From: Patescibacteria group bacterium
GTDB taxonomy: Bacteria; Patescibacteriota; Patescibacteriia; Buchananbacterales; UBA6539
Length of the DNA stretch: 64,000 nucleotides
Direction of reading: 5' to 3'
Assembly (NCBI GenBank): GCA_041662625.1
Contig: JBAZSB010000001.1
Coordinates: 310,467-374,466, forward strand
The notes beneath the pieces are model-generated. The model saw nothing but the letters and a program-made list of their open reading frames with translations. It was not told the DNA's origin and did no database searches. The translations under genes were made by a program, and so were the position numbers. The number at the start of each line of letters is the position of its first letter. Position 1 is the stretch's first letter. This document shows positions 10,454-54,163 of the stretch, piece after piece.

Positions 10454-10523
10454 GAATCAAGGAGTAAGAATCAAGAATCAAGGAAACTAAGCAACCTTAA
10501 TTCTTAATTCTTAATTCTTACTT
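10454..10523. repeat. intergenic palindromic tandem-repeat hairpin, GAATCAAG type, loop core AAGCAACCTT (reverse orientation of AAGGTTGCTT)
   Basis: gaatcaaggagtaagaatcaagaatcaagg-aaactaagcaacc-ttaattcttaattcttaattcttacttc between the mltG stop and the pyrH-like start. Confidence 0.7.
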
Positions 10524-11576
10524 CTATTTGTAATACCTAGCCTTTGCTGCCACATGTTCATCATGAGTCTTGCTGTAAATTACTTTACCATCAGGCGTGG
10601 TCAGAAAATACCAATAAGGATTAGCTTGCGGATAAATTGCTGATTTAATTGCAACAAGACCCGGGTTACAAATTGGCCCTGGCGGCAAACCTTTATATTC
10701 ATAAGTATTATACGGACTGTCAACTTGGATATCAACGGCTGAGGAACGCGCCGCCCCTTTACCAGTAACATAGTTTACTGTGGAGTCAGCTTGCAACGGC
10801 ATGCCCGCCAAAAGACGTTTATAAAAAATGTCAGCCACCAGCTTACGGTCATTTTCCGTTGAAACTTCCTTTTCTAAAATTGAAGCTAAAGTTAAAACCT
10901 CATGGATGGTTTTGCCTTGGCGAGTAATTTCAGACCGTAATTCCGGAGTTAATTTCTTGCCAAAGTTATTAAGCATTTTTTTCACAATGTCAGTAAGCGA
11001 AGCATCCCGGTAAACGCGGTAAGTATCGGGAAAAAGATAGCCTTCTAAATCAGCGGTTTTTGGTCGACTATCTAAAAAATCATATTCATCCCACCAGGCT
11101 GCTTTCTTTTGAACAATATTGAAAAAATCCGCTGGCTGAGCTAAACCATTTTTGGCTAAATAATCAGCAATTTCCTGATTATTCCAACCTTCAATAAAAG
11201 TTAAAGTGATCTCTTTAGTCACGCCGGCACCCCGGCTTAAAATCTGAGCAATCTCTTTCAGGCTTAAATTCTGAGCTAAAAAGTATTCACCATCTTGCAG
11301 GCGGCTATTGATGCCTTGCTGCCAGGTATAAAATTGAAAGAGCCAAGCGCTGCGAATCAAGCCAGCTTTTTGCAATTCCCAACTGATCTCCGTACTCCCC
11401 CAGCCTTTTTCCACTTTAAATTCCTTTTGCTGTGGATTATTAGTAACTGGCTGATTAAGATTATAGGAATAATAAAGCCAGCCGGCTAAAATTAAAACTA
11501 GTAAAATAATTAATAGTTTTCCAGATTTTTTTCTTTTTTTTCGTAAAAACATATTTCTGATTATACTCCTCGCCAT
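10524..11576 (-). CDS. mltG: endolytic murein transglycosylase MltG (YceG-like)
   Basis: N-terminal TM then YceG domain; C-terminal LQADSTVNY...YNTYEYKGLPPGPICNPG motif. Confidence 0.8.
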   Translation of the reverse strand: MARSIIRNMFLRKKRKKSGKLLIILLVLILAGWLYYSYNLNQPVTNNPQQKEFKVEKGWGSTEISWELQKAGLIRSAWLFQFYTWQQGINSRLQDGEYFLAQNLSLKEIAQILSRGAGVTKEITLTFIEGWNNQEIADYLAKNGLAQPADFFNIVQKKAAWWDEYDFLDSRPKTADLEGYLFPDTYRVYRDASLTDIVKKMLNNFGKKLTPELRSEITRQGKTIHEVLTLASILEKEVSTENDRKLVADIFYKRLLAGMPLQADSTVNYVTGKGAARSSAVDIQVDSPYNTYEYKGLPPGPICNPGLVAIKSAIYPQANPYWYFLTTPDGKVIYSKTHDEHVAAKARYYK

Positions 11577-12268
11577 TCCTTTTCAACTTGCTGATGACGC
11601 TGCGGTGTGCCGGTATCAAACCATTGGGCCGAAGATTTAAAGCCAAACAATCCTCCGGCTTTGGCAATGGCCGGCCAAAGATCGGTTTCGACCATGGCAA
11701 AATTTTTATCCGGCAAATAATTGAAAACTTCTGGCGATAATAAATAATAGCCGGAGCTGGCATAATTAGACGGTGCCAGCTCTTTGCTTGGCTTCTCAAT
11801 GAATTGCAAAATTTTATCGCCGGCTAGCATTGCAATACCAAACTGGGTCGGATCAGTCACTTCAGTCAGGGCAATGGTGGCAATGGCCTGATTTTTTTTA
11901 TGAAATTTAATCATTTGTTTCAGGTCCAGGGCAAATAGATTATCACCATTAGACATAAAAAAATCTTTTGCTGGAATTTTGTTCTGCTGCCGTAAAATCA
12001 ATAACGGTCCGGCAGTCCCCATTCTTTCATGCTCTTCCAAATATTCAATCTTTAAACCGAATTTACTGCCATCACCAAAATATTCAATCATTTTATCGGC
12101 CAGATAGGCAACTGAAAGATAAATTTCAGTCACACCGACTTTTTGATAAATAGCAAAAACCTGCTCCGTCAAAGTTTTACCTTGAATCGGAATTAAAGCC
12201 TTGGGAATTTCATAAGTTAACGGCCGAAGGCGTGTTCCTTCACCCCCGGCCAAAATTATTGCTTTCAT
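11561..12268 (-). CDS. sugar-phosphate nucleotidyltransferase (NTP_transferase family)
   Basis: MKAIILAGGEGTRLRPLTYEIPKALIPI signature. Confidence 0.65.
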   Translation of the reverse strand: MKAIILAGGEGTRLRPLTYEIPKALIPIQGKTLTEQVFAIYQKVGVTEIYLSVAYLADKMIEYFGDGSKFGLKIEYLEEHERMGTAGPLLILRQQNKIPAKDFFMSNGDNLFALDLKQMIKFHKKNQAIATIALTEVTDPTQFGIAMLAGDKILQFIEKPSKELAPSNYASSGYYLLSPEVFNYLPDKNFAMVETDLWPAIAKAGGLFGFKSSAQWFDTGTPQRHQQVEKEWRGV

Positions 12269-13026
12269 TCTTTTTCTTTTTCTAGTTCTGCTGGTGGAAT
12301 AAAATTAACGACTAAAAAATTAATTAATTCTTTTTGATCAGGAAAATCAGCCTCCAACATCCCAATAACGTCTTCTCGAGGAGCGGCACCTCGATACGAG
12401 CGGGCGGAGCGTAAAGAATCAAAAGCATCAATAACCGCGAGAATCTTAGAATAATTATGGATCATTTCTTCGGTTTCTGGTTCATCAAATCGATGCAGCT
12501 CAGACTGGGGCGGATAGGGTTGCTTTTGTTTATAAGTATGATGCCTTAAAACAGTCTCGGCCACTATGGCCGCTTCAGCCGGATTGCTAAGATTATTTAA
12601 ACAAAGTTCATAACCAGCCTGCGGATGGCCTTTAAAAATTTCATACTCCCCATCAGTCAAATGGCCTGGTTTAGTAAGTAATTCCGGATCAATTTCTTTT
12701 TTACCAATATCATGAAACAAAGCCGACATGACAAATATTTTCTTTCCCTGAGGCGATGGCTTGGCCAACTCTTTAATATCGCCGCTTTCCGCTAAAGATT
12801 TAGCTAAAATTGCCAAATCAAAACAATGCTTATGGGTACTTTCGATATTTTGTTTTGCAACTATATCTTTTTCTCGCTCAGCCAGTTCCATCATTCTTTG
12901 GGCCATATCAGGATTTTCTTTAAGAATTTGGGCAAGATAGTCATCCTCTCGCTCGGACGGACTCATTGCCCAGCCTTCGATTGCATCAGAGATTGCTTCT
13001 TGCTCAGCAGCAGCAATTGAACACAT
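12265..13026 (-). CDS. HD-domain phosphohydrolase
   Basis: FHDIGK...H...D motifs; 253 aa. Confidence 0.5.
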   Translation of the reverse strand: MCSIAAAEQEAISDAIEGWAMSPSEREDDYLAQILKENPDMAQRMMELAEREKDIVAKQNIESTHKHCFDLAILAKSLAESGDIKELAKPSPQGKKIFVMSALFHDIGKKEIDPELLTKPGHLTDGEYEIFKGHPQAGYELCLNNLSNPAEAAIVAETVLRHHTYKQKQPYPPQSELHRFDEPETEEMIHNYSKILAVIDAFDSLRSARSYRGAAPREDVIGMLEADFPDQKELINFLVVNFIPPAELEKEKE

Positions 13027-13031
13027 AAATT

Positions 13032-13643: not shown

Positions 13644-13654
13644 AACAAATTATA

Positions 13655-13705
13655 ATTTTGAATTTTGATTCAATTTTAAATATTATAATATTGAATTATT
13701 AAAAA
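13655..13705. repeat. AT-rich palindromic intergenic element sharing core AATATTATAATATTGAAT with the element at 17040-17135
   Basis: ttgaattttgattcaattttaaatattataatattgaattattaaaaattcattcaa. Confidence 0.5.
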
Positions 13706-13710
13706 TTCAT

Positions 13711-14535: not shown

Positions 14536-14541
14536 GGAAGC

Positions 14542-14608
14542 GAATTATGAATTATGAATTATGAATTATGTGGTTTCCCTAATTCCTAATTCCTAATTCC
14601 TAATTCCT
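14542..14608. repeat. intergenic palindromic tandem-repeat hairpin: (GAATTATG)x4 - spacer - (CTAATTCC)x4
   Basis: Exact 8-bp tandem units on both arms, in the divergent region between uppP and the DUF212 gene. Confidence 0.75.
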
Positions 14609-14614
14609 GAAAAC

Positions 14615-16145: not shown

Positions 16146-17027
16146 TTATTTCTGACACTTTTTACAAAAATGCGTGCCCCGCCCATTGAGTTTAATTTTT
16201 TGGACAACACCACTGCACCTGGCACATTTCTCCCCTTTCCGACCATAAACTTTCAAATAAGGTAGCATTCCGCCTTGGCTGCCATCTAACTGAACATAAT
16301 CATCGGCTGAAGTTCCTTTTTTAGCAATGGCAAACTTTAATATTTTTGGAATACAATTAAATAATCTCTTAATTTCTTCAGGCTTCAAAGTCTTTACTAC
16401 TCTGGTTGGCAAAATTTTAGCACAAAAGCAGCTCTCATCAGCATAGATATTACCGACGCCAGCAAGCAAAGTCTGATCCATTAAAATCTGTTTTATTTTA
16501 CGATTGGGATAGCGTTTTAAAATTGTTTGAAAATTCACTAAAGTATATTCTTTGTCAAACGGCTCTACACCGAATTCGCTGATTAGCTTATCAACTTGCT
16601 GTTTATTGACTAACCTTATCCAGCCAAACTTGCGCAAGTCATTAAAATAAAGTTTTGAACCGTCAGTAAAATCAAAAATAATATGCGTGAATTTATTGGG
16701 TAAACCCACTACCCCACCCTTTTGCGGGTGGCCCCCAACAATAAGCTTCTGATTTCTGATATCTGATTTCTTATTTCTGAAAATCAACTGCCCAGTCAAT
16801 TTTAAATGGATTAATAAAAAATTGTCACTTGACAATTCAATAATTAAAATCTTTGCCCGGCGCTTAACATCAATGATTTTCCTGCCTTTAAGTTGCTGGG
16901 AAAACTGCTTAGGAGTCAGGGGCTTAACCATTTTTGGCCAGTCCACGCTGGCTGATTTTATAGTCTTACCACGGACAACTGAAGCCAACTCCCGGCGCAA
17001 AGTCTCCACTTCAGGTAATTCTGGCAT
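16146..17027 (-). CDS. mutM: formamidopyrimidine-DNA glycosylase (Fpg/MutM)
   Basis: N-terminal MPELPEVE, H2TH and C-terminal C4 zinc finger (CARCSG...CKKC). Confidence 0.8.
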   Translation of the reverse strand: MPELPEVETLRRELASVVRGKTIKSASVDWPKMVKPLTPKQFSQQLKGRKIIDVKRRAKILIIELSSDNFLLIHLKLTGQLIFRNKKSDIRNQKLIVGGHPQKGGVVGLPNKFTHIIFDFTDGSKLYFNDLRKFGWIRLVNKQQVDKLISEFGVEPFDKEYTLVNFQTILKRYPNRKIKQILMDQTLLAGVGNIYADESCFCAKILPTRVVKTLKPEEIKRLFNCIPKILKFAIAKKGTSADDYVQLDGSQGGMLPYLKVYGRKGEKCARCSGVVQKIKLNGRGTHFCKKCQK

Positions 17028-17039
17028 AAGTTAAGAATT

Positions 17040-17135
17040 TTTAATTTTAAATTTTTAATCAATTTCGAATATTCGAATATTATAATATTGAATCAAAATT
17101 AAAAATTCGAAATTAAAAATTATCTTAAAAAAACT
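17040..17135. repeat. AT-rich palindromic intergenic element (core AATATTATAATATTGAATCA)
   Basis: tcgaatattcgaatattataatattgaatcaaaattaaaaattcgaaattaaaaatt. Confidence 0.5.
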
Positions 17136-24631: not shown

Positions 24632-25615
24632 CTAAAAACCTAAATATTGGACTTCTTCCTGAATCTGGGCGCCCAATTGGTTCCTGACCCGCATTTTAAC
24701 ATCAGAAATTAGCATCATGACGTGTTCGGCTTTGGCCTCACCAGTATTAATAAAAAAGGCACAATGTTTATCAGAAATTTTGCAGCCGCCAATTGTTTTA
24801 TTTTTCAAACCTAAATGGTCAATCACAAAGCCAATCGGCAATTTGCCAAACGCCGTTGCTTCCTGCCATTCTTTTTCAGTGATATCTAATTCCTTAATGG
24901 CTTTTTGGGGATCGATTGCAACTTTATCCAGTTCAATGTTTTGAAAAATGCAGCCAGCGCTGGGTTCATAGGGCAATTTATCATTGCGATCTTTGATTAT
25001 TTTAAGCACTTCGGCATGAATTGCTTGGGAGTCACCATTTTTTAAACCGACAACAACCGATAGAATAATGCCGCCGGTTTGTTTAACCAGACTTTGCCGG
25101 TAACTATATTTCATTTCTTCTTTAGTCAACTCTTGGACTTGCCCATTTTGATAAACTTTAACTTTTTTTATAACATCGCCAAATCCCTTGCCATAAGCGC
25201 CGGCATTGCCTCGCGCAGCGCCACCAACGGTTCCCGGAATTCCTGAAGCAAATTCTAAACCAGTTAAGCCAGCCCGGGCGGCCTCCCCAACTAGCCGGCT
25301 CAGATTGACTCCGGCTTCGGCAAAAATTTCTTCACCTCTGACTTCAAAATTTTCGCTGAGGGTTTTTATTACTAAGCCAGCAAAACCATTATCAGCAACC
25401 ACCAAGTTGCTGCCCCAACCCAAAATAAAATAAGGCAGGTTTAAATCTTGGGCTGTTTTAACCGCCAAAAGTAATTCATCGCTATTTTTGGCAACATAAA
25501 AATACTTAGCCGGTCCACCAATCTTAAAAGTGGTGTGATTAGCCATTGGCTCGTTTTCTTTAACGGTGCCAAGTTTTTGCTGTAGCTGACTTAACATAAA
25601 AGAATTTAGAATCAC
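24632..25615 (-). CDS. murB: UDP-N-acetylenolpyruvoylglucosamine reductase MurB
   Basis: HTTFKIGGPAKYF FAD-binding motif; 327 aa; true start may be the internal Met (MLSQLQQ, about 25597). Confidence 0.8.
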   Translation of the reverse strand: MILNSFMLSQLQQKLGTVKENEPMANHTTFKIGGPAKYFYVAKNSDELLLAVKTAQDLNLPYFILGWGSNLVVADNGFAGLVIKTLSENFEVRGEEIFAEAGVNLSRLVGEAARAGLTGLEFASGIPGTVGGAARGNAGAYGKGFGDVIKKVKVYQNGQVQELTKEEMKYSYRQSLVKQTGGIILSVVVGLKNGDSQAIHAEVLKIIKDRNDKLPYEPSAGCIFQNIELDKVAIDPQKAIKELDITEKEWQEATAFGKLPIGFVIDHLGLKNKTIGGCKISDKHCAFFINTGEAKAEHVMMLISDVKMRVRNQLGAQIQEEVQYLGF

Positions 25616-25680
25616 GAATCAAGAATTAAGGTTGCTTAGCAATTCTCCCTTGATTCTTACTTCTTACTTCTTGATTCTAA
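25604..25680. repeat. intergenic palindromic tandem-repeat hairpin, GAATCAAG type, loop core TTAAGGTTGCTTAGCAA
   Basis: gaatcacgaatcaagaattaaggttgcttagcaattctcccttgattcttacttcttacttcttgattc between the murC stop and the murB start. Confidence 0.7.
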
Positions 25681-27065
25681 TTAATTAGCTTATCCCTAAC
25701 CCGATACACATCTCCTGCCCCCATTGTTACTAAAACTATGCCGGGTTTAATTTTATCTTTCAAACAATTAACTGCGTGATTTAAATCGCCAGCATAAATA
25801 ACATTCTGATGGTAGATTTTGGCTTCTTTGGCCAAATCTTTGGAAGTGATATCTTCGGCTTGTTCCCGGGCGGAAGCAAAAATATCAGCGAATAGCACCA
25901 TATCCACATCATTGAAACTTTGGGCAAAATCATTTAACAAAGCCTTGGTCCGGGAAGCCATATGCGGCTGAAAAACACACCAAATCAAATTATTGGGGAA
26001 ACGCTGACGAATGGCTTTCAGGGTAGTTTTGATTTCGGTGGGATGATGGGCGTAATCATCAACAAAAGTGATACCATTTCTTTCAGAAATATCAAAACGC
26101 CTTTCGCTACCTTTAAATTGTTTCAAAATATTTTGGATTTCGCCGATTTTTAGTCCCTCATTTAAACCAATAATTATTACCGCCAAAGCATTTAAGGCAT
26201 TATGCTCGCCAAAAAGTCCGATTTCAAATTCACCAAAGTCCTGGCCGGCTTTTTTAACTTTAAAAATAGTACGATCGAATTCCACTCTAACATCATAAGC
26301 TTGCCAAGTATTACTTACCTCAAAGCCATAAGTGACGGTTTTGCTTTCATTACCTTTAATAATTTTTTTAATGGCGGGCCAATCGCCACAAACTACCAAT
26401 AGCTCTTTGGTTTTCTGGACTAATTTTTGGAATGCAACCTCCATTGATTCTAAATCAGGATAGATATCAACATGTTCCCATTCTAAACTGGTAATTACCG
26501 AAATTGCCGGATCTAAATCTAAAAATTTTGGCGTTTTATCTTCTTTACTGCGGACATATTCATCACCTTCGACAATAAAGTGGACGCCTGAGGCCCACTT
26601 GGAATTGCTGCCTAAATCCGGCACCATCCCTGTACCAATCAAAAAACTGGGGTCAAGGCCGGCCTGAGAAAACAAATAGGCCATTAGCGCAGTTGTTGTC
26701 GTTTTGCCATGGACACCGGTAATGGCAATAGTTTTTTTCTCTTGGCTTAATAAACCCCGCATTTCTGAATCAGTAATATTAGGCAATTTCCTTTTTTTAG
26801 TTTCGGCTACTTCAATATTATCATCTCCCCAGGAAGTGCCAATTACCACTAAATCCGGATTACAATCCAGATTTGCTGCCGAAAAATCTTCAAAAATTTC
26901 AATCTCATGATCAATTAAAATTTTATCAGTAATAAATTTTTCTTCAACATCGGAACCAAAAACTTCCAGCCCTTTTTGTTTACAAATTACCGCCAAGCCT
27001 GACATCGCCACGCCTTTAATGCCGATGAAATAAACTCTTTTGATTTTAGCTAGATTAATAGCCAT
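25677..27065 (-). CDS. murC: UDP-N-acetylmuramate--L-alanine ligase MurC
   Basis: Mur ligase domains; GVHGKTTTTAL P-loop. Confidence 0.85.
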   Translation of the reverse strand: MAINLAKIKRVYFIGIKGVAMSGLAVICKQKGLEVFGSDVEEKFITDKILIDHEIEIFEDFSAANLDCNPDLVVIGTSWGDDNIEVAETKKRKLPNITDSEMRGLLSQEKKTIAITGVHGKTTTTALMAYLFSQAGLDPSFLIGTGMVPDLGSNSKWASGVHFIVEGDEYVRSKEDKTPKFLDLDPAISVITSLEWEHVDIYPDLESMEVAFQKLVQKTKELLVVCGDWPAIKKIIKGNESKTVTYGFEVSNTWQAYDVRVEFDRTIFKVKKAGQDFGEFEIGLFGEHNALNALAVIIIGLNEGLKIGEIQNILKQFKGSERRFDISERNGITFVDDYAHHPTEIKTTLKAIRQRFPNNLIWCVFQPHMASRTKALLNDFAQSFNDVDMVLFADIFASAREQAEDITSKDLAKEAKIYHQNVIYAGDLNHAVNCLKDKIKPGIVLVTMGAGDVYRVRDKLIN

Positions 27066-27971: not shown

Positions 27972-29018
27972 TTATAAAATCATCGCTGTAATTTTTTCCG
28001 CCGCGTCTTTTGGCATCATCTTGGCGATATTCCGGCTCAGGTTGGCTAACTCTGCCTGGTCAAACAAAAGTGTTTTAATTGCTTGGAAAAATTTCTGACT
28101 GGACAAATCATTTTCATCCAGTACAGCAATGGCATTATTACGAAAAAATTCAACGGCATTATCCTGCTGATGGCTGGCTGGGATTGGAATGATAATAGCG
28201 GGCTTTGCCAAGGCCGCCAACTCAGTCAAAGTGCCTAAGCCGGCTCGGGCAACAACTAAATCAGCAATAGCATAGGCATTCTTCATTTGATCAGTTAAAA
28301 AGTCATAGGAGCGATAACGGGGATGCTCAGCGGTTTTTTGCTGCCGGCCGCCGGTTAAATGAATCACCTGACAGAATTGAACTAATTCCTCAAGACTTTC
28401 AATTACCAAACTATTTAAATTTAAGGCACCAGTGCCACCACCTAAAATTAAAATTGTCGGCAAGTCAGACTTAAAACCAAAAAATTTGTAACCGGCTTCT
28501 TTACTGCCGGTTAAAATATCCGCTCGCACGGGATTACCAACCAAATGAGTTTTTTTGGCTGGGAAATCTTTCAATGATTTTTCAAAAGTAACCGTGATCA
28601 TGTTGGCAAAGGGGGCCATTAGTTTATTGGCTAAACCTGGCCGGACATCCTGCTGATGAATAATCAAAGGCCGGCGCAAAAACCAAGCCGCCCAGGCCAC
28701 CGGCACTGAAACAAAGCCGCCAGCCGAAAGCACGGCCTGAGGCTTAAATTTTAAAATAATAAATAATGACTGCCAAAAGCCAAAAAAGATTAAAAAAGGA
28801 TCTAAAAAATTCTTGAAGCTGAAATAACGCCGGAGCTTCCCAGAAAATATTTTTTTCAAAGGAATCTGGTAACTGCTGATTAAATTTTCTTCCGGTCCAT
28901 CCGATGTTGCCAACCATAAAAATTCAGCCTGCGGCTGATTTTTTTTGATTTCTTCATAAATAGCAATTAGGGGGCTGACCGAACCCAAGGTTCCACCCCC
29001 GGAAAGAATGACTCGCAT
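27972..29018 (-). CDS. murG: undecaprenyldiphospho-muramoylpentapeptide beta-N-acetylglucosaminyltransferase MurG
   Basis: GT28 N/C domains; GGGTGALNLN motif. Confidence 0.85.
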   Translation of the reverse strand: MRVILSGGGTLGSVSPLIAIYEEIKKNQPQAEFLWLATSDGPEENLISSYQIPLKKIFSGKLRRYFSFKNFLDPFLIFFGFWQSLFIILKFKPQAVLSAGGFVSVPVAWAAWFLRRPLIIHQQDVRPGLANKLMAPFANMITVTFEKSLKDFPAKKTHLVGNPVRADILTGSKEAGYKFFGFKSDLPTILILGGGTGALNLNSLVIESLEELVQFCQVIHLTGGRQQKTAEHPRYRSYDFLTDQMKNAYAIADLVVARAGLGTLTELAALAKPAIIIPIPASHQQDNAVEFFRNNAIAVLDENDLSSQKFFQAIKTLLFDQAELANLSRNIAKMMPKDAAEKITAMIL

Positions 29019-29266
29019 ACCCGGTAGTAGTCCCGCCCTTTTTCTTTTTTTGAAAAATAACGGGGAATTTTATTAATTTTATATTTATCCCAATAGTAAT
29101 CCTATCAATTAAAGGAGTGGGATCACTACCGGGTATAGCTAAAAAATAACAGATTTCTGACAAAAAATCAATAACTACCGATGTTATTTCTAATGATTGA
29201 CATTAATTAAAAAATTTAGTAAGCTTGAAGGCAACTTTGTCCCAACGACGAAGAGGAGGGAATGAA

Positions 29267-29527: not shown

Positions 29528-29564
29528 CCACTCCTCCTGGTTAGCACTAATCAATCGTACCCTT

Positions 29565-29592
29565 GAGACCGTCTCCGGACGGCTCTTTTTTT
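29565..29592 (+). terminator. intrinsic terminator of the small GC-rich cassette
   Basis: GAGACCGTC-tccg-GACGGCTC-TTTTTTT. Confidence 0.65.
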
Positions 29593-29638
29593 AATTAAAA
29601 AAACTCTAAAATAGAGTTTTAAAAAATTAAATTTAATT

Positions 29639-44497: not shown

Positions 44498-45667
44498 TTA
44501 TTTTATTGGCGATATCATCCTTAATTTAGCCACAATCCTCGGTAAAACCTCCAATAAATAATCAACATCTTTTTCTGTATTGAATTTACCCAAAGTTATC
44601 CTTAAACTGCCATGAGCCAACAGCGGATCCATGCCTAGACTCATAAGGACATGAGATGGCTCCAATGAGCCAGAAGAGCAGGCCGAACCGGTAGAAACGG
44701 CAATCCCTTCTTGGTCTAAAAGTAAAAGCATACTTTCACCTTCTACCCCCTTAAAACTAAAGTGGGCATTGCTTGGGACTCGTTTTTCTAAATCACCATT
44801 AACTTGGGTATTAGGAATATTTTTCAAAACGCCAGCAATTAATTTATCACTTAATTTTTTTATTTTCTTATTACTTTCTTGATCTTGAGTGATAAGTTCG
44901 ACTGCCTTCCCTAGGCCAATGATACCGGGCACATTTAAAGTGCCAGGGCGCAAACCTTTTTCCTGATGGCCGCCAAATTGAATTGGGCTAAGTGGCGTAC
45001 CAGCCCTTTTATACAAAACCCCGATACCTTTTGGTCCATAAATTTTATGACCGGACAAAGATAATAAATCAACCCCCAATTTGTCAACATTCATCTCACA
45101 ATAATTAGCAGCTTGGACCGCGTCAGTATGAAAATAAATTCTGTTTTCTGATTTCCGTTTTCTGTTTTCTTCCTTTACCAATTCTCCAATTTCAACAATT
45201 GACTGAATAGTTCCGATCTCATTATTAACATACATAACTGAAATCAAACGGGTATTCTCTTTAATCGCCTGTTTGATATCATCAACGGAAACTAAACCTT
45301 TATTGCTCACGCCAATATAAGTAACTTCCACGCCTCTTTTTTCCATCTCCCGGCAGGGCTCCAAAATGGCCGGATGTTCAATTCTAGTAGTAATAATATG
45401 TTCGCCTGGCTTGGCTAAACCCAAAATCACAAGATTATCACTTTCAGTCGCTCCAGAAGTGAAAAAGACTTCACTAGTCTTACTCCCTAAAAAATCAGCA
45501 ACGATTTCTCTGGCTTCATCCACTTTTGCCATAGCTGTTTGGCCGTGAATATGAATTGACGAAGCATTACCAAAAGTTTCAGAAAAATAAGGCAACATTT
45601 CTTTAAGAACCTGGGGGGCCACCGGAGTAGTGGCTGAATGGTCAAAGTAGATTTTTTGGTTAGACAT
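44498..45667 (-). CDS. iscS: cysteine desulfurase IscS/NifS
   Basis: PLP-lysine motif SGHKIYGPKGIGVLY; active Cys near the C-terminus (GSACSSGS). Confidence 0.85.
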   Translation of the reverse strand: MSNQKIYFDHSATTPVAPQVLKEMLPYFSETFGNASSIHIHGQTAMAKVDEAREIVADFLGSKTSEVFFTSGATESDNLVILGLAKPGEHIITTRIEHPAILEPCREMEKRGVEVTYIGVSNKGLVSVDDIKQAIKENTRLISVMYVNNEIGTIQSIVEIGELVKEENRKRKSENRIYFHTDAVQAANYCEMNVDKLGVDLLSLSGHKIYGPKGIGVLYKRAGTPLSPIQFGGHQEKGLRPGTLNVPGIIGLGKAVELITQDQESNKKIKKLSDKLIAGVLKNIPNTQVNGDLEKRVPSNAHFSFKGVEGESMLLLLDQEGIAVSTGSACSSGSLEPSHVLMSLGMDPLLAHGSLRITLGKFNTEKDVDYLLEVLPRIVAKLRMISPIK

Positions 45668-45760
45668 AACAATTTAAGTTAATAAAGTTAATAGAGCAAT
45701 AAAGCGATAAGGTGCCGAAAACTTCATTACTTTATTAACTTTATCGCTTTATCTCTTAAT

Positions 45761-45985: not shown

Positions 45986-45996
45986 AGTTAGTTATA

Positions 45997-46072
45997 GAAT
46001 TAAGAATCATGAATCAAGAATTAAGGTTGCTTGGTAGTACTTCCTTGATTCTTGATTCTTACTTCTTGATTC
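45997..46072. repeat. intergenic palindromic tandem-repeat hairpin, GAATCAAG type, loop core TTAAGGTTGCTTGG
   Basis: gaattaagaatcatgaatcaagaattaaggttgcttggtagtacttccttgattcttgattcttacttcttgattc between the iscU stop and the nfu start. Confidence 0.7.
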
Positions 46073-46517
46073 AATCTTCGGTAATCTTATAATCCTTAAT
46101 TTCCGGATATTGATCCAGCACCCTCTCTTTTTCTAGATAATTCCTGATTGCCACTTTCAAAGCATCGGAAGCTAAAACTGAACAATGTAGTTTAACTGGC
46201 GGCAATTCACCAAGGCCTTTGACAATATCTTTTTTTTCCAAAATCCAAGCTTCTTTTAAAGTTTTACCTTTGACCATATCGGTTGAAATTGAAGAACAGG
46301 CAATCGCTGCGGCACAACCTAAGGTTTCAAACTTAACGTCTGAAATCACGTCTTCCAATCGGTTGACAGTTGACGACGGGTGATCAACCTTTAAATAAAT
46401 TTTCATCATATCCCCGCATAAAGGGTTACCGACTTCACCAATCGCGTCAGCGTCAGCAATTTGACCCTGGTTATGGGGATTTTGGAAATGATCCATTACT
46501 TTTTTAGAATATGGCAT
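46071..46517 (-). CDS. iscU: Fe-S cluster scaffold IscU/NifU N-terminal-type
   Basis: NPLCGD, ...GCAAAIACSS conserved Cys ligands. Confidence 0.8.
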   Translation of the reverse strand: MPYSKKVMDHFQNPHNQGQIADADAIGEVGNPLCGDMMKIYLKVDHPSSTVNRLEDVISDVKFETLGCAAAIACSSISTDMVKGKTLKEAWILEKKDIVKGLGELPPVKLHCSVLASDALKVAIRNYLEKERVLDQYPEIKDYKITED

Positions 46518-46547
46518 AAGCTTAAATTAGAAATTCATAATTAAAAA

Positions 46548-46946
46548 TTAAATCAAATCTTTCAAAGTCATTGATTTTAAACTGTCAGTAATCGCTTTTT
46601 GGACTTTTTGATAGACTTTAGCTGACGGACAAGCCTTAACCCCGCAAAAAACCCGACCATTCACGCCCAGACAATGAAAGACCGAGATTTGTCCTTCTAA
46701 AGCCTCTATAACGCTAAAAACGCTGATTTTTGAAGGGTTTCTGGCCAATTGATAGCCACCAGCCATTCCTTTCGAGCTAAGCACTAAATCGGCCTTTTTT
46801 AAACGAGAAAAAAGTCGTTCCAAATAGGCCTGGGAGATCTTTTCGGCTTTAGCCATTTTAGCTAAAGAATAAGGTCCCTGGGCGTAATTTTTAGCTAAAT
46901 GGATTATTGCCCTTAAGCCATAAGATGATCTGGTGGAAAATTTCAT
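46548..46946 (-). CDS. iscR: Rrf2-family transcriptional regulator (IscR-like)
   Basis: MKFSTRSSYGLRAIIHLA Rrf2 HTH; three Cys (CLGVNGRVFCGVKAC) consistent with a cluster-binding IscR. Confidence 0.7.
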   Translation of the reverse strand: MKFSTRSSYGLRAIIHLAKNYAQGPYSLAKMAKAEKISQAYLERLFSRLKKADLVLSSKGMAGGYQLARNPSKISVFSVIEALEGQISVFHCLGVNGRVFCGVKACPSAKVYQKVQKAITDSLKSMTLKDLI

Positions 46947-47031
46947 ATATTAAATTGGCTAAAATCGGGCAAGACCAGAGGGTGGACTGAATTAACTAGA
47001 TTAGATTCCCACCCTCCTCTCGCCACACTTA

Positions 47032-47082
47032 TTAGCAACCGCAGCCGGGGCCGCAGTTACTACAGCACGAACAATTGTCCAT
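47032..47082 (-). CDS. 16-codon Cys-rich leader ORF MDNCSCCSNCGPGCGC (7 Cys) upstream of iscR
   Basis: ATG at 47082-47080, double stop TAATAA at 47034-47029; preceded by promoter TTGACA(47160-47155)-16nt-TAAAAT(47138-47133); followed by an 8-bp-stem hairpin GAGGGTGG...CCACCCTC (46977-47017) before the iscR start at 46946. Confidence 0.3.
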   Translation of the reverse strand: MDNCSCCSNCGPGCGC

Positions 47083-47132
47083 ATATTGAGCGCTTAATTA
47101 TTAATACCAACCATTTTAGTCGGTATTTATTA

Positions 47133-47160
47133 ATTTTAGCAAATAAAAAAAGTCTGTCAA
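47133..47160 (-). promoter_or_regulatory. sigma70-like promoter for the Cys-rich leader and the isc operon
   Basis: TTGACA-16nt-TAAAAT on minus strand; overlapped by one copy of a CAAGACC(C)CAGAGG direct repeat (second copy at 46967-46981). Confidence 0.4.
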
Positions 47161-47184
47161 GACCCCAGAGGATATAGCTAAAGA

Positions 47185-47793: not shown

Positions 47794-48633
47794 CTATTCA
47801 TTGACAATAATGACTACTTTTCTCCCCTGCTCCATTTCTTGATCAGTCATACCCCCTGCCGCTAAAGTGTGATCCCAATCATGGATGGCAGCAATTAATT
47901 TTTGATATTTATAACGGTAACCTTCACCTTTTCTAGTTCCTGGGTCATTAGTAATAAACTCGCCTTTGTTATCGTCATAACCACGGATTACCAGCATGTG
48001 GTAAATCGGACCGGCTCCGGTAAAATTTGGATTGCCTAGTTGCCGACCGGCGGCCGGAACAATAATCAGCTGACCGGCTAAAAGTTGTTTCTTGATATTT
48101 TCCACCGAAACATCGGTTGTCGTTTTAGCCGAAACCGCAAAATAATTTTTTAAAATTGATGTGGCTTCATCGGCCGTAACATCAACCTGATAGCCGTTTT
48201 CCTCTTCCCATTTAACTAAATTCAAAATCCCCTGTTCCATAAGGTGCGGACTTAACGGCTCTTTTTTAAAATATTTTACCGCCATAATCATGGCCGCTTC
48301 TTCGCAGGCTTCTTCATGCAACGCATCCCAGTTAGAAAAAGGCGCCTGACTGGCAAACGCCACAGGATAATCTAAAAATTTAGGAATCTCATTATTCTCA
48401 ATAATCGGCGTAACGGGTTTAACCGGTTCAACTGGTTTAGGCTCGGTTTTCACCGTTGTAGTTGGTTTGATTGGCTCAACTGTCTTATTGGTCGAACTTG
48501 GCGTCGTTGTGGCTTGAACTTCCGGTAAAGAATTGTTCTGATTTAGTAAAGCAACCTCTGTCTGATTTTGGCAGGCGACTAACGTAAAAATTGATGCAAT
48601 TAGCAAAAAATGTTTTATTTTCATACTCTCCAA
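47794..48633 (-). CDS. lipoprotein with C39-like (papain-fold) peptidase domain
   Basis: Lipobox LVAC after signal peptide; Thr/Pro/Val-rich linker; C-terminal C39_2-like domain (conserved Cys in EEACEEAAMIMAVKYF, His in YHMLVIRGYDD). Confidence 0.45.
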   Translation of the reverse strand: MESMKIKHFLLIASIFTLVACQNQTEVALLNQNNSLPEVQATTTPSSTNKTVEPIKPTTTVKTEPKPVEPVKPVTPIIENNEIPKFLDYPVAFASQAPFSNWDALHEEACEEAAMIMAVKYFKKEPLSPHLMEQGILNLVKWEEENGYQVDVTADEATSILKNYFAVSAKTTTDVSVENIKKQLLAGQLIIVPAAGRQLGNPNFTGAGPIYHMLVIRGYDDNKGEFITNDPGTRKGEGYRYKYQKLIAAIHDWDHTLAAGGMTDQEMEQGRKVVIIVNE

Positions 48634-48723
48634 GTATATCCTAACCAGCCTTTCTTGACAATTCGGCCGCCATAAGCTATTATACTTCCATCCCTAATTT
48701 CTAATTCCTACTTCCTAAAAAAT

Positions 48724-49051: not shown

Positions 49052-49067
49052 ATTGAAAAATTTATTC

Positions 49068-50714
49068 TTATTTCTTGTCTCTTATTTCTTGTCTCTTATT
49101 TCTTGCTGCCGCAGCGATTAATCCTTTAAACAAAGGGTGCGGATTTAACGGCCTTGACTTTAACTCTGGATGAAACTGGGTACCAACAAAGAAAGGATGA
49201 TTAGCCACTTCAATTATTTCAACTAATTTTTTATCCGGGGACAACCCAGCTAATCTTAAGCCCTTTTTGATTAACTTCGCCCGATAATCATTATTGAATT
49301 CATAGCGATGGCGGTGGCGTTCACTAATCTTTCTTTGGCCGTAAAGTTTAAAACTCAGTGAATCCTTATCCAAAATACAAGGATAAGCCCCAAGCCGCAT
49401 CGTATTACCATATTGTTTCTTGGCTAACTTTTCTGCTTGGTCGGGCATAATATGAATTACTGGATACTTAGTCTTGGGATTAATCTCAGTTGTGTGAGCG
49501 CCTTTAAGTTTAACGACATTCCGGGCAAATTCAATTGTGGCCAGTTGCATGCCATAACAAAGCCCTAAAAAAGGAATTTTATTTTCCCGGGCATATTTAA
49601 TGGCTAAAATTTTTCCCTCAATTCCCCGACTACCAAAGCCACCGGGAACAACAATGCCGTCATAATTTTTTAGTTCTTTAACTAGGCCGGGCTTTTTTTC
49701 ATAAACATCAGAATTAATCCAGCTTATTTCTGCCTTAACCTTGTTTGCACCGCTGGCATGCTTGATTGCCTCAATTACTGAAATATAGGCATCAGGCAAA
49801 ATAAAATCACCAGAAGCAAAATATTTACCAATAATACCGATTTTAACAGCTTTAATCGCCCGCCTAGCTGCTAGCACCATCTTCTGCCAATCCTGCATAT
49901 TCCTTTTCTTCGGTCTAAGATGCAATTTATTTAAAATCTTTTCGCTAAGCCTTTCTTTTTCTAAAATTAAAGGGATTTCATAAATTGATTCTACATCCGG
50001 ATTGGAAATGACATCCTGCTTGGCGACATTACAGAAAGTAGAAATTTTATGTTTCCTCGGTTCGTCAACCGGCTTGGCCGAACGACAAACGATAAAATCC
50101 GGTTGAATTCCAGCGGCATTAATCTGTTGGACGGCATATTGAGTCGGCTTAGTCTTCATCTCGCCTAAAGTCCCGGGAATTGGCAGATAACTGACCAAAA
50201 CGAATAAGACATCGTGAGGATTTTGATAATGCATAATTCTGGCTGCTTCCAAAAATAGAATATTTTGATATTCGCCGACCGTGCCACCGACTTCAATAAT
50301 AGCAATATCAGCTTTAGATTTAACTGTTGCTTTTTTTATTCGTCTGATTACTTCTTCGGGAATATGCGGTACCACCTCAACACATTTTCCGCCGTACTCT
50401 AGATTTCTTTCGCGGCAAATTACTGACTGGTAAACCCGGCCCGTGGTCATGTAATTGTCCCTTAAAATATTGACACCTAAAAATCTCTCGTAGTTGCCAA
50501 TATCCTGATCGGTTTCATCACCATCTTCGGTAACAAAAACCTCGCCGTGCTCGACCGGGTTCATCGTACCGGCGTCAATATTAACATAAGGGTCAATTTT
50601 TAAGGCGGTTACTTTGTAACCCCGAGCTTGCAAGATTTTTCCAATTGAGGCAGTGGTAACGCCTTTGCCCACGCCGGACATCACCCCGCCCATGACAAAG
50701 ATAAATTTAGACAT
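49068..50714 (-). CDS. pyrG: CTP synthase PyrG
   Basis: N-terminal synthetase domain (GGVMSGVGKG) and C-terminal GATase (GLCYGMQ, HPE...). Confidence 0.9.
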   Translation of the reverse strand: MSKFIFVMGGVMSGVGKGVTTASIGKILQARGYKVTALKIDPYVNIDAGTMNPVEHGEVFVTEDGDETDQDIGNYERFLGVNILRDNYMTTGRVYQSVICRERNLEYGGKCVEVVPHIPEEVIRRIKKATVKSKADIAIIEVGGTVGEYQNILFLEAARIMHYQNPHDVLFVLVSYLPIPGTLGEMKTKPTQYAVQQINAAGIQPDFIVCRSAKPVDEPRKHKISTFCNVAKQDVISNPDVESIYEIPLILEKERLSEKILNKLHLRPKKRNMQDWQKMVLAARRAIKAVKIGIIGKYFASGDFILPDAYISVIEAIKHASGANKVKAEISWINSDVYEKKPGLVKELKNYDGIVVPGGFGSRGIEGKILAIKYARENKIPFLGLCYGMQLATIEFARNVVKLKGAHTTEINPKTKYPVIHIMPDQAEKLAKKQYGNTMRLGAYPCILDKDSLSFKLYGQRKISERHRHRYEFNNDYRAKLIKKGLRLAGLSPDKKLVEIIEVANHPFFVGTQFHPELKSRPLNPHPLFKGLIAAAARNKRQEIRDKK

Positions 50715-50720
50715 ATTTTT

Positions 50721-50790
50721 GAATTAGGAATTAGGAATTAGGAATTAGGAATTGCTCATTCCTAACTCATAATTCATAATTCGTTATTCC
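50721..50790. repeat. intergenic palindromic tandem-repeat hairpin: (GAATTAGG)x4 - spacer - CTAACTCATAATTCATAATTCGTTATTCC
   Basis: Between the rplI stop and the pyrG start. Confidence 0.7.
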
Positions 50791-50860
50791 TATTTAAAGC
50801 GACAAACCCACCTGGCGGTGGGCATAGATTATAAAAAATAAATTTTATTAAATTTAAGCA

Positions 50861-51319: not shown

Positions 51320-51328
51320 CTTAGTAAC

Positions 51329-51601: not shown

Positions 51602-51636
51602 ATTTTTATAGAAATATCGGTTAATCCAAATTTATC

Positions 51637-53121
51637 TTATAATTTTCTCACTACTCCTTGGATAGTGTCAATCTCGACTTTATCACCGTCTTTTAAGACT
51701 TTGGTAGCAATTTTTGTCCCAACAAAACAGGGAATTTTTAACTCCCGGGCGACAATCGCGGCATGACTGGCAATTCCACCTTCATTAGTTATAATAGCCA
51801 AAGCTTTACGCATCAATGGCACAAATTCTATTCTGGTCATACTGGTAACGAGAATTTCATTTTTTTTAAATCTTTCTTTGGTCGGATTAAAAATTATTCT
51901 GGCAATACCGCGAACTATTTTTTTATTACCTTGATAGGCGACAAAACCTTTCACTTCTTTGGCATTTGACTGACTAGCTAATTTAAAAATTTTATTAATT
52001 TCTTTGCCGTAGAAATATTTGATCGGCTTATTCTTTTGAAAAACTGCAAGATAATTTTTATGACGCCCCAAGACATCTGACTTTTTCAACTTTTTGTTTC
52101 TTTTGAGTAGATTTAAAACATCATAAAAATCATAGCTGACGAGTTCTTGATAAGTGAGCCCATATAATTTTGATATATCCTCAATGAAACTTGCATAATA
52201 GTAAAAAAATTTTGCCTGGCCCAATTTTCTCTGATCAATCCAATAAATTGTTCGGGAAGAGAAATAGATGTCATCTTTATCTTTTTTTAACAATTGCAGC
52301 CTTGCTAGAATTTTTCTCCTGGCAAAATTAATATCTTTAGCTTTACTAATAATAGAGTTGAGTTCTCTCTGGACTTGGTTTATATTTTTTTGCAACAATT
52401 CTTTTTTAATATCATTAATAACTGAATTGACTGACAAGTGTGTAGCGGAATAAAAATCAGATTTAATCCAAAAATGACGTTTGATATAAGATTGAATTTC
52501 ATTTTTAATTTTAGTATCACCGCTGTTTTTATAAAATAGCAAGCAAAGCTGCAAAAAATCCTTTCTTTCCGCGTTTAAAAAAGACAGTTCTTTTGGCTCG
52601 CAAAGATCGCCAAAAATTTCTCTTGCCTTGTTTGAATCAAAATTATGCCTTTTAGCAAAAGCGGGAATTATTTCAGAATTAATTATTTCTCCCTTGTCTT
52701 CACCAACAGAAGAGTAATACCAAAATATTCTGCTCGCTTTAAGAAAATTCTCAAAATGATAAAGTATTATATTTGAAGTTATTTTTTTCTCTTTCTTGTA
52801 CCGGGCCCAGACCATGTCTATTCCCCTAATTGACGTCAAATGCTTGGCTATCATTTTATTCAAACTTAGCTTGTCTTTTAAATAATTGGAGTAAACTTTT
52901 TTGGCTAACACATCAACAAGATTCTGGCTGACAATTTGAAAATGATGAATCTTTTGGTTAAACATGAAAAAAAAGAATAGCGGGCTGAAATTTACCCCGT
53001 GCACAATTGAAGAATTAACGTAAGCGTCATAAGGAACACTGGCCACGGAAAGATTGGCGTTGGCATTCTGAATGTCAATTCTATTTTTGGTTAAATATTT
53101 TTCAACCGCTTGGATATTCAT
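51637..53121 (-). CDS. protein with divergent N-terminal domain and C-terminal PEP-utilizing-enzyme mobile (swivel phospho-His) domain - paralog 1
   Basis: C-terminus GGIASHAAIVARELKIPCFVGTKIATKVLKDGDKVEIDT matches the PEP-utilizers His-domain consensus; N-domain shares the (L)YGLTYQEL block with paralogs 2-6. Confidence 0.6.
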   Translation of the reverse strand: MNIQAVEKYLTKNRIDIQNANANLSVASVPYDAYVNSSIVHGVNFSPLFFFFMFNQKIHHFQIVSQNLVDVLAKKVYSNYLKDKLSLNKMIAKHLTSIRGIDMVWARYKKEKKITSNIILYHFENFLKASRIFWYYSSVGEDKGEIINSEIIPAFAKRHNFDSNKAREIFGDLCEPKELSFLNAERKDFLQLCLLFYKNSGDTKIKNEIQSYIKRHFWIKSDFYSATHLSVNSVINDIKKELLQKNINQVQRELNSIISKAKDINFARRKILARLQLLKKDKDDIYFSSRTIYWIDQRKLGQAKFFYYYASFIEDISKLYGLTYQELVSYDFYDVLNLLKRNKKLKKSDVLGRHKNYLAVFQKNKPIKYFYGKEINKIFKLASQSNAKEVKGFVAYQGNKKIVRGIARIIFNPTKERFKKNEILVTSMTRIEFVPLMRKALAIITNEGGIASHAAIVARELKIPCFVGTKIATKVLKDGDKVEIDTIQGVVRKL

Positions 53122-53139
53122 ACTTTCTTTGAAATTTCC

Positions 53140-54084
53140 CTACAGAGTAGTAATCGGACGAGACTGGGTAATATAAAATTTACCCTTAGCATATGCCCAT
53201 TCGATGTCCTGGGGCTTAGTATAATGTCTTTCAATCTGAAGACAAATTTTGGCTAAAGCAATAATTTGATTATTACTAAGCACTTGAGCTTCTTTTTTAT
53301 TTTTTGCTACGATTTGCCAAACATTACCGCCGCTGCTCTTTCGGACTAACATTCTAGTTTTAGTCGCCAGGTTAATGTCTAAAATCTGAAAATTCCTTTT
53401 ATCTAAAACGTAACTGTCCGGCGTAATCTGACCTGAGACAATGGCTTCACCCAAGCCAAAACTGGCTTCAATAATCATTTGATTTTTATTCCTGGTCACT
53501 GGATGGACAGTGAAGGTAATGCCGGAGATTTCCGATTCCACCATTTGCTGAATAACCACCGCGACCGAAACTTTGGAATTGCGTAAACCTTTTTCAAAAC
53601 GGTAAAAAATTGCTCTGGGAGTAAAAAGAGATGACCAACACTCCTTAACTCGGCCTAATAGATTCTTTTCTGTCGTATTCAAATAGGTCTCCAGTTCCCC
53701 TGCCCAACTGGCTTGCGTTGAATCCTCAGCCGTGGCTGATGAGCGGACAGCGACAAACTTAGTTTTTAGTTTCTTGAATTCAATTAAAATTTCCTGGCCC
53801 AAATCTTTTGGCATTCTAGTGTCATGAATTAAGTCGCGGATGACATTAGAAGCCTGGTCAACTGAATTAATATCTTTATAATTTATTTTTTTCAACTGCG
53901 TCTTAATCTCTACCTGCAGATCGGTTTCAGCCAAAAATTGTTCAAAAGCTGAGGCTAAAATAACAAAGCCAGGTGGCACTGAAATTTTAGTCTGAATCAT
54001 TTCACCAAGCGACGCACCTTTGCCCCCGGCAATGCTAATATCTTTTTTAGAAATTTGCGCTAATGGTTTGATAAATTTTGACAT
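53140..54084 (-). CDS. stand-alone PPDK_N-type ATP-binding domain protein (N-terminal domain of pyruvate phosphate dikinase / PEP synthase / rifampin phosphotransferase)
   Basis: 314 aa; ISIAGGKGASLGEM...VAVRSSATAEDS...SFAGQ-like blocks typical of PF01326; no swivel or TIM-barrel domain attached. Confidence 0.6.
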   Translation of the reverse strand: MSKFIKPLAQISKKDISIAGGKGASLGEMIQTKISVPPGFVILASAFEQFLAETDLQVEIKTQLKKINYKDINSVDQASNVIRDLIHDTRMPKDLGQEILIEFKKLKTKFVAVRSSATAEDSTQASWAGELETYLNTTEKNLLGRVKECWSSLFTPRAIFYRFEKGLRNSKVSVAVVIQQMVESEISGITFTVHPVTRNKNQMIIEASFGLGEAIVSGQITPDSYVLDKRNFQILDINLATKTRMLVRKSSGGNVWQIVAKNKKEAQVLSNNQIIALAKICLQIERHYTKPQDIEWAYAKGKFYITQSRPITTL

Positions 54085-54090
54085 TTTTTA

Positions 54091-54163
54091 GAATCAAGAA
54101 TCAAGAATCAAGAATCAAGCAGTAACTTAGCACCCTTGATTCTTGATTCACGATTCATAATTC
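54091..54163. repeat. intergenic palindromic tandem-repeat hairpin: (GAATCAAG)x4 - spacer - CTTGATTCTTGATTCACGATTCATAATTC
   Basis: Immediately upstream of the PPDK_N gene start. Confidence 0.7.

Follow-up and report, generated by a model that had tools for sequence, protein, structure and literature searches.

Hairpins built from tandem heptamer repeats lie directly upstream of start codons in a Patescibacteria genome

We analysed a stretch of 64,000 nt from a Patescibacteria group bacterium (GenBank assembly GCA_041662625.1, contig JBAZSB010000001.1, positions 310,467 to 374,466 of the forward strand; GTDB lineage Buchananbacterales, UBA6539), hereafter the window, and in it a class of intergenic hairpins made of short tandem repeats. 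Pfam scans identified mraZ/mraW, rplJ/rplL, a mur/ftsW cluster, secA, bacA, fpg, a pilus operon, a nifU/iscS cluster, rpmA, pyrG and split pyruvate phosphate dikinase (PPDK) genes. The nearest relatives of the pyrG product, after an identical protein, belonged to Candidatus Buchananbacteria. Coding sequence occupied 92.9% of the window, while 17 of the 23 arrays with a period of 7-8 nt fell in the non-coding 7.1%. The original prediction, made from the letters of the window, had described six intergenic palindromic hairpins, and we found all six where it had placed them. The class is wider than that: across this genome group it consists of tandem-repeat palindromes, which are imperfect hairpins of 60-100 nt with 7-nt (sometimes 8-nt) units, and at least 13 sites were present in the window, including hairpins made of other 7-8-nt units and two half-sites. 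Further points that go beyond the prediction are that the starts concerned lack Shine-Dalgarno sequences, that the hairpins have a preferred polarity and that occupancy of sites is conserved in relatives but sequence is not.

The six sites, E1 (10453..10525, minus strand), E2 (14542..14608, between divergent genes), E3 (25600..25682, minus), E4 (45996..46075, minus), E5 (50721..50789, minus) and E6 (54090..54165, minus), were imperfect hairpins in which each arm was a run of tandem repeats. Tandem Repeats Finder gave a period of 7 nt in every arm, with 3.6-4.7 copies per arm. An 8-mer unit had been proposed before; this came from counting twice the G that neighbouring heptamers share. The units were GAATCAA, GAATTAG and GAATTAT, with the variants GAATTAA and GAAGTAA. 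An inverted-repeat search returned arms of 23-33 nt, separated by 5-25 nt and 82-91% complementary, so that the imperfect pairing noted earlier was confirmed. The pattern (GAATYAN)x3+G, with up to two mismatches, had 26 matches in the window, compared with 0.03 expected from shuffled sequences, and all of them were located in the six sites and in a half-site at rpmA. The loop core AAGGTTGCTTRG occurred exactly three times, at 10487(-) in E1, 25628(+) in E3 and 46023(+) in E4, as had been claimed, with one copy reversed. E1 (as its reverse complement), E3 and E4 had in common this loop and the order of variant units in one arm (CCTTGATTCTTGATTCTTACTYCTTGATTC), and E6 was similar to E1. Therefore we regard E1, E3 and E4 as copies of one element, present in both orientations relative to transcription.

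We aligned ten copies and observed helical segments of six pairs, with position 7 of the heptamer often unpaired. Position 5 (C or T) covaried with its pairing partner, being C-G in four copies and U-A in four. The mismatches that had been called systematic were regular in E2, in E5 and in the orthologous element of the related locus L135, where GAATTAT stood opposite CTAATTC and gave one U.C or G.A per 7 nt. Predicted RNA folds of E1-E6 ranged from -19 to -37 kcal/mol; z-scores were between -5.2 and -8.9 for five of them and only -2.3 for E3. E3, E5 and E6 were reproduced without any difference in independent ENA, Logan and JGI assemblies that were 99.8-100% identical to the window, and thus they are not an assembly artefact. 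Two contigs, L002 and L133, terminated within elements, as is expected of multi-copy repeats.

Every element ended 2-12 nt upstream of an ATG that had no Shine-Dalgarno sequence; in E1-E6 the arm nearer to the start terminated at a distance of 2-10 nt. Of the window's 67 genes only 5 were preceded by a GGAG or GAGG motif, no gene with an element being among these five, and the linkers to the start codon were A/U-rich (for example AAAAAT-ATG). E1, E3 and E4 each filled a whole co-directional spacer inside an operon, with the stop codon of the upstream gene within the first unit. E1 separated mltG/yceG from a pyrH-like amino-acid kinase gene, the yceG stop being TAG (10524-10526) and the kinase ATG (10446) lying 6 nt past the last unit (-29.4 kcal/mol, z=-7.1). 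E3 was the murC-murB spacer, with the loop AAGGTTGCTTAG, from the murC stop TAG (25677-25679) to the murB ATG (25597); the 321-aa MurB is the annotated protein. E4, with the loop AAGGTTGCTTGG, stood between nifU_N, whose stop was TGA (46071-46073), and a 74-aa nifU with its ATG at 45985 (z=-5.2). E2 and E6 were situated in divergent regions. E2 consisted of (GAATTAT)x4, a 7-nt loop and (CCTAATT)x4 with one mismatch per heptamer, and it filled the 79-nt spacer between bacA(-) and DUF212(+), 6 nt from either ATG (z=-7.2 and -7.1 on the two strands). E6 was located within the leader of the PPDK_N operon (linker AAAAA, ATG 54084; -37.2 kcal/mol, z=-8.9). E5 stood between the ordinary terminator of the L9 operon (50807-50823) and the pyrG ATG (50714), with the linker AAAAAT (z=-6.7). 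This agrees with the placement given in the original prediction. The distribution relative to gene ends was strongly non-random: all co-directional spacers of 60-120 nt were such elements, with the sole exception of 29555-29638, and none of the seven convergent spacers of the window contained an element.

Since E1, E3 and E4 are stable hairpins directly past stop codons, one could regard them as terminators or attenuators of the upstream gene. We consider this hardly credible. The stems were AT-rich and followed by an A-rich linker such as AAAAAT, not by a T-tract, and the terminator scan matched only other sites. Ordinary GC-rich terminators with a T-tract were present in all convergent spacers, and at E5 terminator and element stood side by side. 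Moreover, E2, E6 and the elements at rpmA and rplJ had no upstream co-directional gene to terminate. Simple terminators and clustered regularly interspaced short palindromic repeats (CRISPR) had been excluded from the beginning, and both exclusions stood; a CRISPR array, in which repeats of 23-50 nt alternate with unique spacers of about equal length, is ruled out by the period of 7, the lack of spacers and the two inverted arrays. Two further candidates were rejected. Core sites of integron attC have the consensus RYYYAAC ... GTTRRRY, unlike the GAAT.../...ATTC ends of the elements; an integrase was not present, and the genes on either side are housekeeping genes in synteny. A replication-origin reading was rejected on anatomy and context.

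The remaining sites followed the same layout. The half-site at rpmA (48690..48718, plus strand), mentioned already in the original prediction, consisted of direct CCTAATT-type repeats that made up nearly the entire rpmA 5' leader, between a TTGACA-17-TATTAT promoter (48655-48683) and the ATG (48724); it was found also in L134 and L135. At the second half-site (46518..46552, minus) four NNTAATT units adjoined the nifU_N ATG (46517). A hairpin of GAACNNN / NNNGTTC heptamers (8465..8520, minus) filled the rplJ-rplL spacer and ended 4 nt before the rplL ATG (8461). Octamers ATAAAGNN / NNCTTTAT built the hairpin of the nifU-iscS spacer (45672..45758, minus; iscS ATG 45667). Two AT-rich hairpins, upstream of the PCMT gene (13648..13710, minus; ATG 13643) and, with 7-8-nt repeats, upstream of fpg (17032..17130, minus; ATG 17027), shared the apical core AATATTATAATATTGAAT at 13679 and 17076, as the original prediction had noted. 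The rplJ hairpin (9068..9128, minus) contained CGAAT-type repeats. It was placed after a promoter and a match to the L10 leader (9134-9273) and before ATTAGTATTATATTTT and the rplJ ATG (9052).

The elements themselves had no match in Rfam at the gathering score; at E<=1 the only hit in the window was L10_leader at 9134-9273, beside an element and not on one. This match (minus strand, RF00557) was full-length; its 41.8 bits (E=0.0023) fell just short of the gathering score of 44, and a promoter-like TTGACA-16-TATACT (9304-9277) stood directly before it. Probably this is a true L10 leader whose sequence has diverged. The adjacent GC-rich stretch from the pyrH-like gene to the rplJ promoter (9288-9762) held only an open reading frame (ORF) with a GTG start and without a Pfam match, and it may be non-coding.

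Dyad symmetry and location upstream of genes would also fit an element acting at the level of DNA: a regulator or nucleoid protein might bind the heptamer arrays, or the element might be a promoter that is portable. Promoters are expected in a divergent spacer such as the one that E2 fills, and the 3' part of the rplJ element includes a weak promoter-like TTCGCA-16-TATTAT, which would start transcription at the ATG. We nevertheless consider such a role very unlikely. E1, E3 and E4 are operon-internal and run from stop codon to start codon, and the elements at rplJ and rpmA and E6 lie downstream of a promoter; E6 and the rpmA array follow strong promoter-like sites, that of E6 being TTGATA-16-TATTAT (54217-54190), found in L123 too. 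The presence of elements inside operons and inside the probable rplJ leader argues against DNA operators. Units that are wholly different at the same site in relatives fit a sequence-specific protein poorly. To our knowledge, a 7-bp tandem period is unlike the helical repeat of known DNA-binding arrays. The gene strand of E1-E6 contained no sigma-70-like match, and leaderless starts did not fit the positions of the -10 boxes, so the promoter hypothesis was rejected. Of the roles listed by the original prediction, RNA hairpin and selfish repeat were therefore retained and protein-binding site was disfavoured.

A separate observation on start regions concerns the Peptidase_C39_2 gene (48624-48661, minus), where the -10 box (TATACT, 48638-48633) ended 8 nt before the ATG (48624), a layout repeated in five relatives. 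The lineage may thus have mRNAs that are leaderless or begin with a leader of 2-3 nt.

Syntenic loci of relatives with 79-97% protein identity provided 31 orthologous start codons, whose upstream regions we compared with those of the window. The original prediction had named confinement to the window, and a random distribution with respect to gene ends, as results that would refute it; the elements were not so confined, and their distribution was not random. Occupancy of the junctions was correlated (8 occupied in both, 3 in the window only, 3 in the relative only, 17 in neither; odds ratio 15, p=0.004), where the bacA and DUF212 junctions are not independent because one element is common to both. 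Units at an occupied junction often differed. At bacA/DUF212 the window carried GAATTAT/CTAATTC, and L139 carried TTGTTAAA/TTTAACAA. At nifU, GAATCAA was common to the window and L123, and L135 had TAGCTTG. Three forms were seen at murB: the window had a GAATCAA hairpin, L137 a hairpin of AAAAG type and L138 a direct array of CTAATTC. The inner part of the element was inverted between E4 and its orthologue in L123, and the arms of E5 were swapped in L135. In a relative whose pyrG was 97% identical the last unit had already changed (TCATGATTC vs CCTAATTC), with the AAAAAT-ATG linker unchanged. The occupation of the same junctions by different units points to a structural role in mRNA rather than to chance.

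Elements also appear at non-orthologous sites, because a composite of CGAAT and ATTAGTATTATATT was located at rplJ in the window and at pyrG in L123 and L124.

Array composition that differs among relatives, together with the known behaviour of heptamer repeats in 5' leaders (PMC12721329; review in PMC4679880), could also be read as contingency loci, in which the heptamer copy number switches the downstream gene by phase variation, as at hmw or other simple-repeat loci. We give this only a very slight chance. The downstream genes (murB, pyrG, rplJ, rplL, rpmA, bacA) are housekeeping genes, the arrays are short (3-5 copies), and E3, E5 and E6 did not vary among the three independent assemblies.

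Our tentative preference is that the elements are of the repetitive extragenic palindromic (REP) type, derived from simple-sequence repeats, and act as co-transcribed leader or intercistronic stem-loops that delimit the start region and are possibly substrates of RNase III. We hold this as a plausible reading and not as an established one. What the analysis shows is the anatomy, the position, the predicted folds, the scarcity of Shine-Dalgarno sequences and the conservation of junctions with turnover of units. The elements are probably transcribed, judging by their operon-internal location and by the promoter-like sites and L10 leader upstream of them. Comparison of the copies suggests that arms would expand and become homogenised by slipped-strand mispairing, that the inner part would flip through recombination between the arms, and that copies may spread or be overwritten between sites. 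Once co-transcribed, the element would form a long stem-loop with regular mismatches. This fold would loop out the spacer, and a short A/U-rich linker and the AUG would be the single-stranded remainder. The most likely post-transcriptional role would then be that of an insulator of the start region, combined with processing or stabilisation through RNase III-type cleavage of double-stranded RNA. Such a role is supported by the leader of hmw in Haemophilus influenzae, which is an experimental precedent. Cleavage would leave the pyrimidine-rich 3' arm and the linker as a short leader for initiation independent of a Shine-Dalgarno sequence, and the half-sites at rpmA and nifU_N already have such a form. 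Cleavage of the hairpin and any effect on translation are inferred.

Strand asymmetries were in part consistent with the favoured reading. The purine-rich arm was the 5' arm in 16 of 22 hairpins, and in the half-sites the pyrimidine-type arm was always the one next to the ATG. There were 40 G.U pairs in sense folds and 21 in antisense folds, although the copies are not independent; this count is the only strand result that leans to selection at the level of RNA.

Several observations weigh against it. The sense strand folded better than the antisense strand in only 13 of 19 hairpins, which was not significant, and E3 and E4 folded worse in sense than in antisense. Because the orientation of the element flips relative to transcription, a strand-specific sequence is not a requirement. 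Inhibition of initiation would be an equally possible effect of a stable stem 5 nt from the AUG. The junctions of E1, fpg and iscS were empty in some relatives, with spacers of 4-18 nt (the fpg site in the L137/L139 relative). Near-identical copies at unrelated sites (E1/E3/E4 and the CGAAT element) look like selfish spread. Finally, among the matches listed from a scan of genome contigs, described below, GAATYAN arrays were not adjacent to starts (12% and 8% of sides, compared with 9% at random).

According to the main rival, the elements are selfish or neutral palindromic simple-sequence repeats without function, arising by slippage and inverted duplication or by spread like that of REP elements or miniature inverted-repeat transposable elements (MITEs). 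They would persist only where they are harmless, in the unconstrained leaders of genes without Shine-Dalgarno sequences, where folding loops them out. We regard this as a possible, if rather doubtful, explanation. Dispersed near-identical copies with a common loop and arm-variant pattern, the CGAAT composite at non-orthologous sites in different genomes, the existence of both orientations, the sporadic presence among relatives and the change of a unit next to a 97% identical pyrG would all follow from it. So would the diversity of heptamer arrays in many phyla, and the fact that co-directional spacers of 60-120 nt, bar one, are elements, as for inserted extra DNA. It accounts less well for junctions that stay occupied despite different units, and the polarity bias and the orientation of the half-sites are unexpected of neutral DNA, as is the G.U excess in the sense strand. 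The elements also persist in a streamlined genome of ~0.9 Mb before essential, highly expressed genes (rplJ, rplL, rpmA, pyrG and murB).

Signs of mobility were scarce. Neither the ORFs of the window that were scanned with Pfam nor the genes called in the related loci included one for a REP-associated tyrosine (Y1) transposase (RAYT), and no other transposase gene was seen in the window or in ~190 kb of these loci. The elements lacked the GTAG/CGTC end of the REP type and their arms started with GAAT-type heptamers. Target-site duplications amounted to weak AAATA and TTAAATT repeats in AT-rich flanks and were not convincing; the 7-nt direct repeat TTAAATT, which flanks one element (45668-45760), may be due to chance in AT-rich DNA. 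The inverted arms were variable arrays and not fixed terminal inverted repeats of the MITE kind. The functional and the selfish readings are not mutually exclusive, as is the case with REP and Correia elements.

It is also conceivable, but in our opinion improbable, that the tandem-repeat leader is a dedicated translation-initiation module of Patescibacteria poor in Shine-Dalgarno sequences. The pyrimidine-rich array and A-rich linker would then be a landing pad for the ribosome, comparable to the G-poor direct-repeat enhancers that depend on protein S1. With the complementary 5' arm folding away the spacer, the stop codon upstream and the AUG downstream would come to lie at the base of one stem. 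This might permit re-initiation over a spacer of 70-90 nt, in a manner resembling ribosome shunting, or unmasking of the start by RNase III. Genes that overlap or are 0-20 nt apart would use ordinary coupling of termination and re-initiation.

We compared the favoured stem-loops with known systems. The closest positional parallel is offered by the direct repeats of the heptamer TAACTGA in marine Beggiatoaceae, which also occur in some Cyanobacteria and Bacteroidetes (MacGregor 2015, PMC4679880). Their function is unproven, and translational regulation was proposed (PMC4679880). Like the elements described here, they are tandem heptamers (there in 2-6 copies), mostly intergenic, a few nt upstream of starts and in one preferred orientation; they precede essential genes including those for ribosomal proteins, and at our elements, too, there is no canonical ribosome-binding site. 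They differ in being direct repeats of one unit, with one indirect repeat reported, whereas here two inverted arrays form a palindrome, many units are used (GAATCAA, GAATTAG/T, GAACNNN, TAGCTTG, octamers) and the host belongs to Patescibacteria. In the 5' untranslated region (5'-UTR) of H. influenzae hmw1A, (ATCTTTC)n contributes to a hairpin whose cleavage by RNase III was shown by experiment and raises expression (PMC12721329). Heptamer repeats and a long imperfect hairpin in the 5' leader are common to both cases, with transcription probable and the fold predicted in ours. In hmw1A only the left arm is a repeat (at least 10 copies), which pairs with a G-rich stretch at a single phase-variable virulence locus. 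In contrast, both arms are arrays of 3-5 copies here, many housekeeping genes are involved and copy number did not vary in near-identical assemblies.

Arrays with a dominant period of 7 that are intergenic and fast-evolving are another point of likeness, shared with the STRR arrays (short tandemly repeated repetitive sequences) of cyanobacteria and with long simple-sequence repeats (LSSR). STRR sequences are said to go back to work by Mazel in 1990 and Vioque in 1997, and the latter reportedly found that such arrays can lengthen an RNA helix, P12 of RNase P. Prokaryotic LSSR were treated by Mrazek (2007), as summarised in PMC4679880. Unlike our elements, the arrays of other phyla, among the matches listed, are not adjacent to starts and are often longer composites. 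Particular to the present case is the hairpin that abuts the start codon, with conserved occupancy of junctions. REP elements, bacterial interspersed mosaic elements (BIMEs), REP doublets forming hairpins (REPINs) and the Correia elements or Neisseria miniature insertion sequences (NEMIS), which are MITEs, resemble the class in being short dispersed extragenic palindromes in both orientations that are co-transcribed, as we presume for ours. REP-like elements affect the stability and processing of mRNA, and Correia hairpins are cut by RNase III. REPs depend on a RAYT transposase and lie mostly 3' of genes, while our elements lie 5' of start codons. Fixed terminal inverted repeats and a duplicated TA target characterise Correia elements; our elements have tandem-heptamer arms, and neither a transposase nor a clear duplication was found. 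The defining end of REPs is, according to PMC3733652, a conserved GTAG or CGTC tetranucleotide on a palindrome of 20-40 nt.

In short, heptamer repeats, a position at start codons in other phyla and one heptamer hairpin processed by RNase III are already known. We found no description of such elements in Patescibacteria, also called the candidate phyla radiation (CPR), in the searchable literature, nor one of the palindromic many-unit form with conserved junctions, flipping inner parts and polarity bias.

Outside the lineage, the scan of genome contigs with (GAATYAN)x3 returned at least 120 loci, which show breadth and not relative abundance, as the search is biased towards the query. The matches listed include Bacteroidota, Cyanobacteria, Ignavibacteria, Chloroflexota, Acidobacteriota, Lentisphaerota and CPR phyla including Saccharibacteria. 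Period 7 was dominant among the tandem repeats of these loci (314 of ~650 rows of Tandem Repeats Finder), with at least 107 units other than the query. Among listed hairpin pairs from other phyla, the GAAT-type arm came first in at least 11 and second in at least 4, three of which were by-products of one macro-repeat. Since the listed arrays elsewhere are not enriched at starts, we conclude that the heptamer process is general and the start-abutting form is particular to this lineage. A scan of metagenomes with AAGGTTGCTTRG-N3-12-CCTTGATTC gave E3 of the same strain and four chance matches in high-GC contigs, and nothing else. In Lentisphaerota (L022, L087 644-980, L090) we observed macro-repeats of ~78 nt, composed of a GAATGCT array, a GC-rich core and an ATAATTC array, which stood head to tail with growing copy numbers.

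Further features of the window and related loci were recorded. Heptamer arrays occurred within ORFs too, at 3971-4001 (tsaB-like), 16747-16780 (fpg), 31765-31794 (murD) and 45139-45170 (iscS); those of fpg and iscS encode short loops rich in K/R/E/N that vary among relatives. The 3' end of pyrG (49066-49105) contains 2.9 copies of a perfect 14-nt repeat, which add ~7 residues (RQEIRDK), giving 548 aa against 541 aa in relatives. The leader of a creatininase-like gene (54465+) contains a 25-nt inverted repeat, 92% complementary (54338-54399; CTGGTTGATTCAGATAAGCGGTAAA / TTTACCGCTTACTTGAATCAACCAG), downstream of TTGACA-17-TATTAT (54269-54297); its position and sequence were kept in L123, L126 and L134, and it may be a regulatory hairpin. 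Upstream of an Rrf2-family gene of the nifU/iscS cluster there was a strongly structured 238-nt spacer (46947-47184, -77.5 kcal/mol), partly conserved in L123 and without an Rfam match. The 197-nt spacer upstream of murG carried a long-range inverted repeat (29017-29136) with 26-nt arms, 81% complementary and 68 nt apart. PPDK was split (51637-54084 and 59029-63403), with PPDK_N as a separate gene and several tandem paralogues of 446-527 aa, in which only the C-terminal PEP-utilising mobile domain was recognised; similar runs were present in relatives. Between the acylphosphatase and L9 genes, some relatives had a gene of the bAvd / 23S_rRNA_IVP family (L124 9037-9345, L125 206-514, L134 3323-3655), possibly an accessory gene of a diversity-generating retroelement, which the window lacked.

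In practice, the elements break short-read assemblies, and some of them overlap the stop codon of the preceding gene. Translation start and mRNA processing are almost unknown in Patescibacteria, most of which are uncultured. If the hairpins are functional, they would be a compact and easily recognised mark of independently initiated cistrons in genomes mostly without Shine-Dalgarno sequences, and they would make Shine-Dalgarno-independent initiation and the processing of operons accessible to tests. Should they be selfish, streamlined genomes of ~0.9 Mb would still carry palindromic simple-sequence repeats with fast turnover, under strict positional tolerance.

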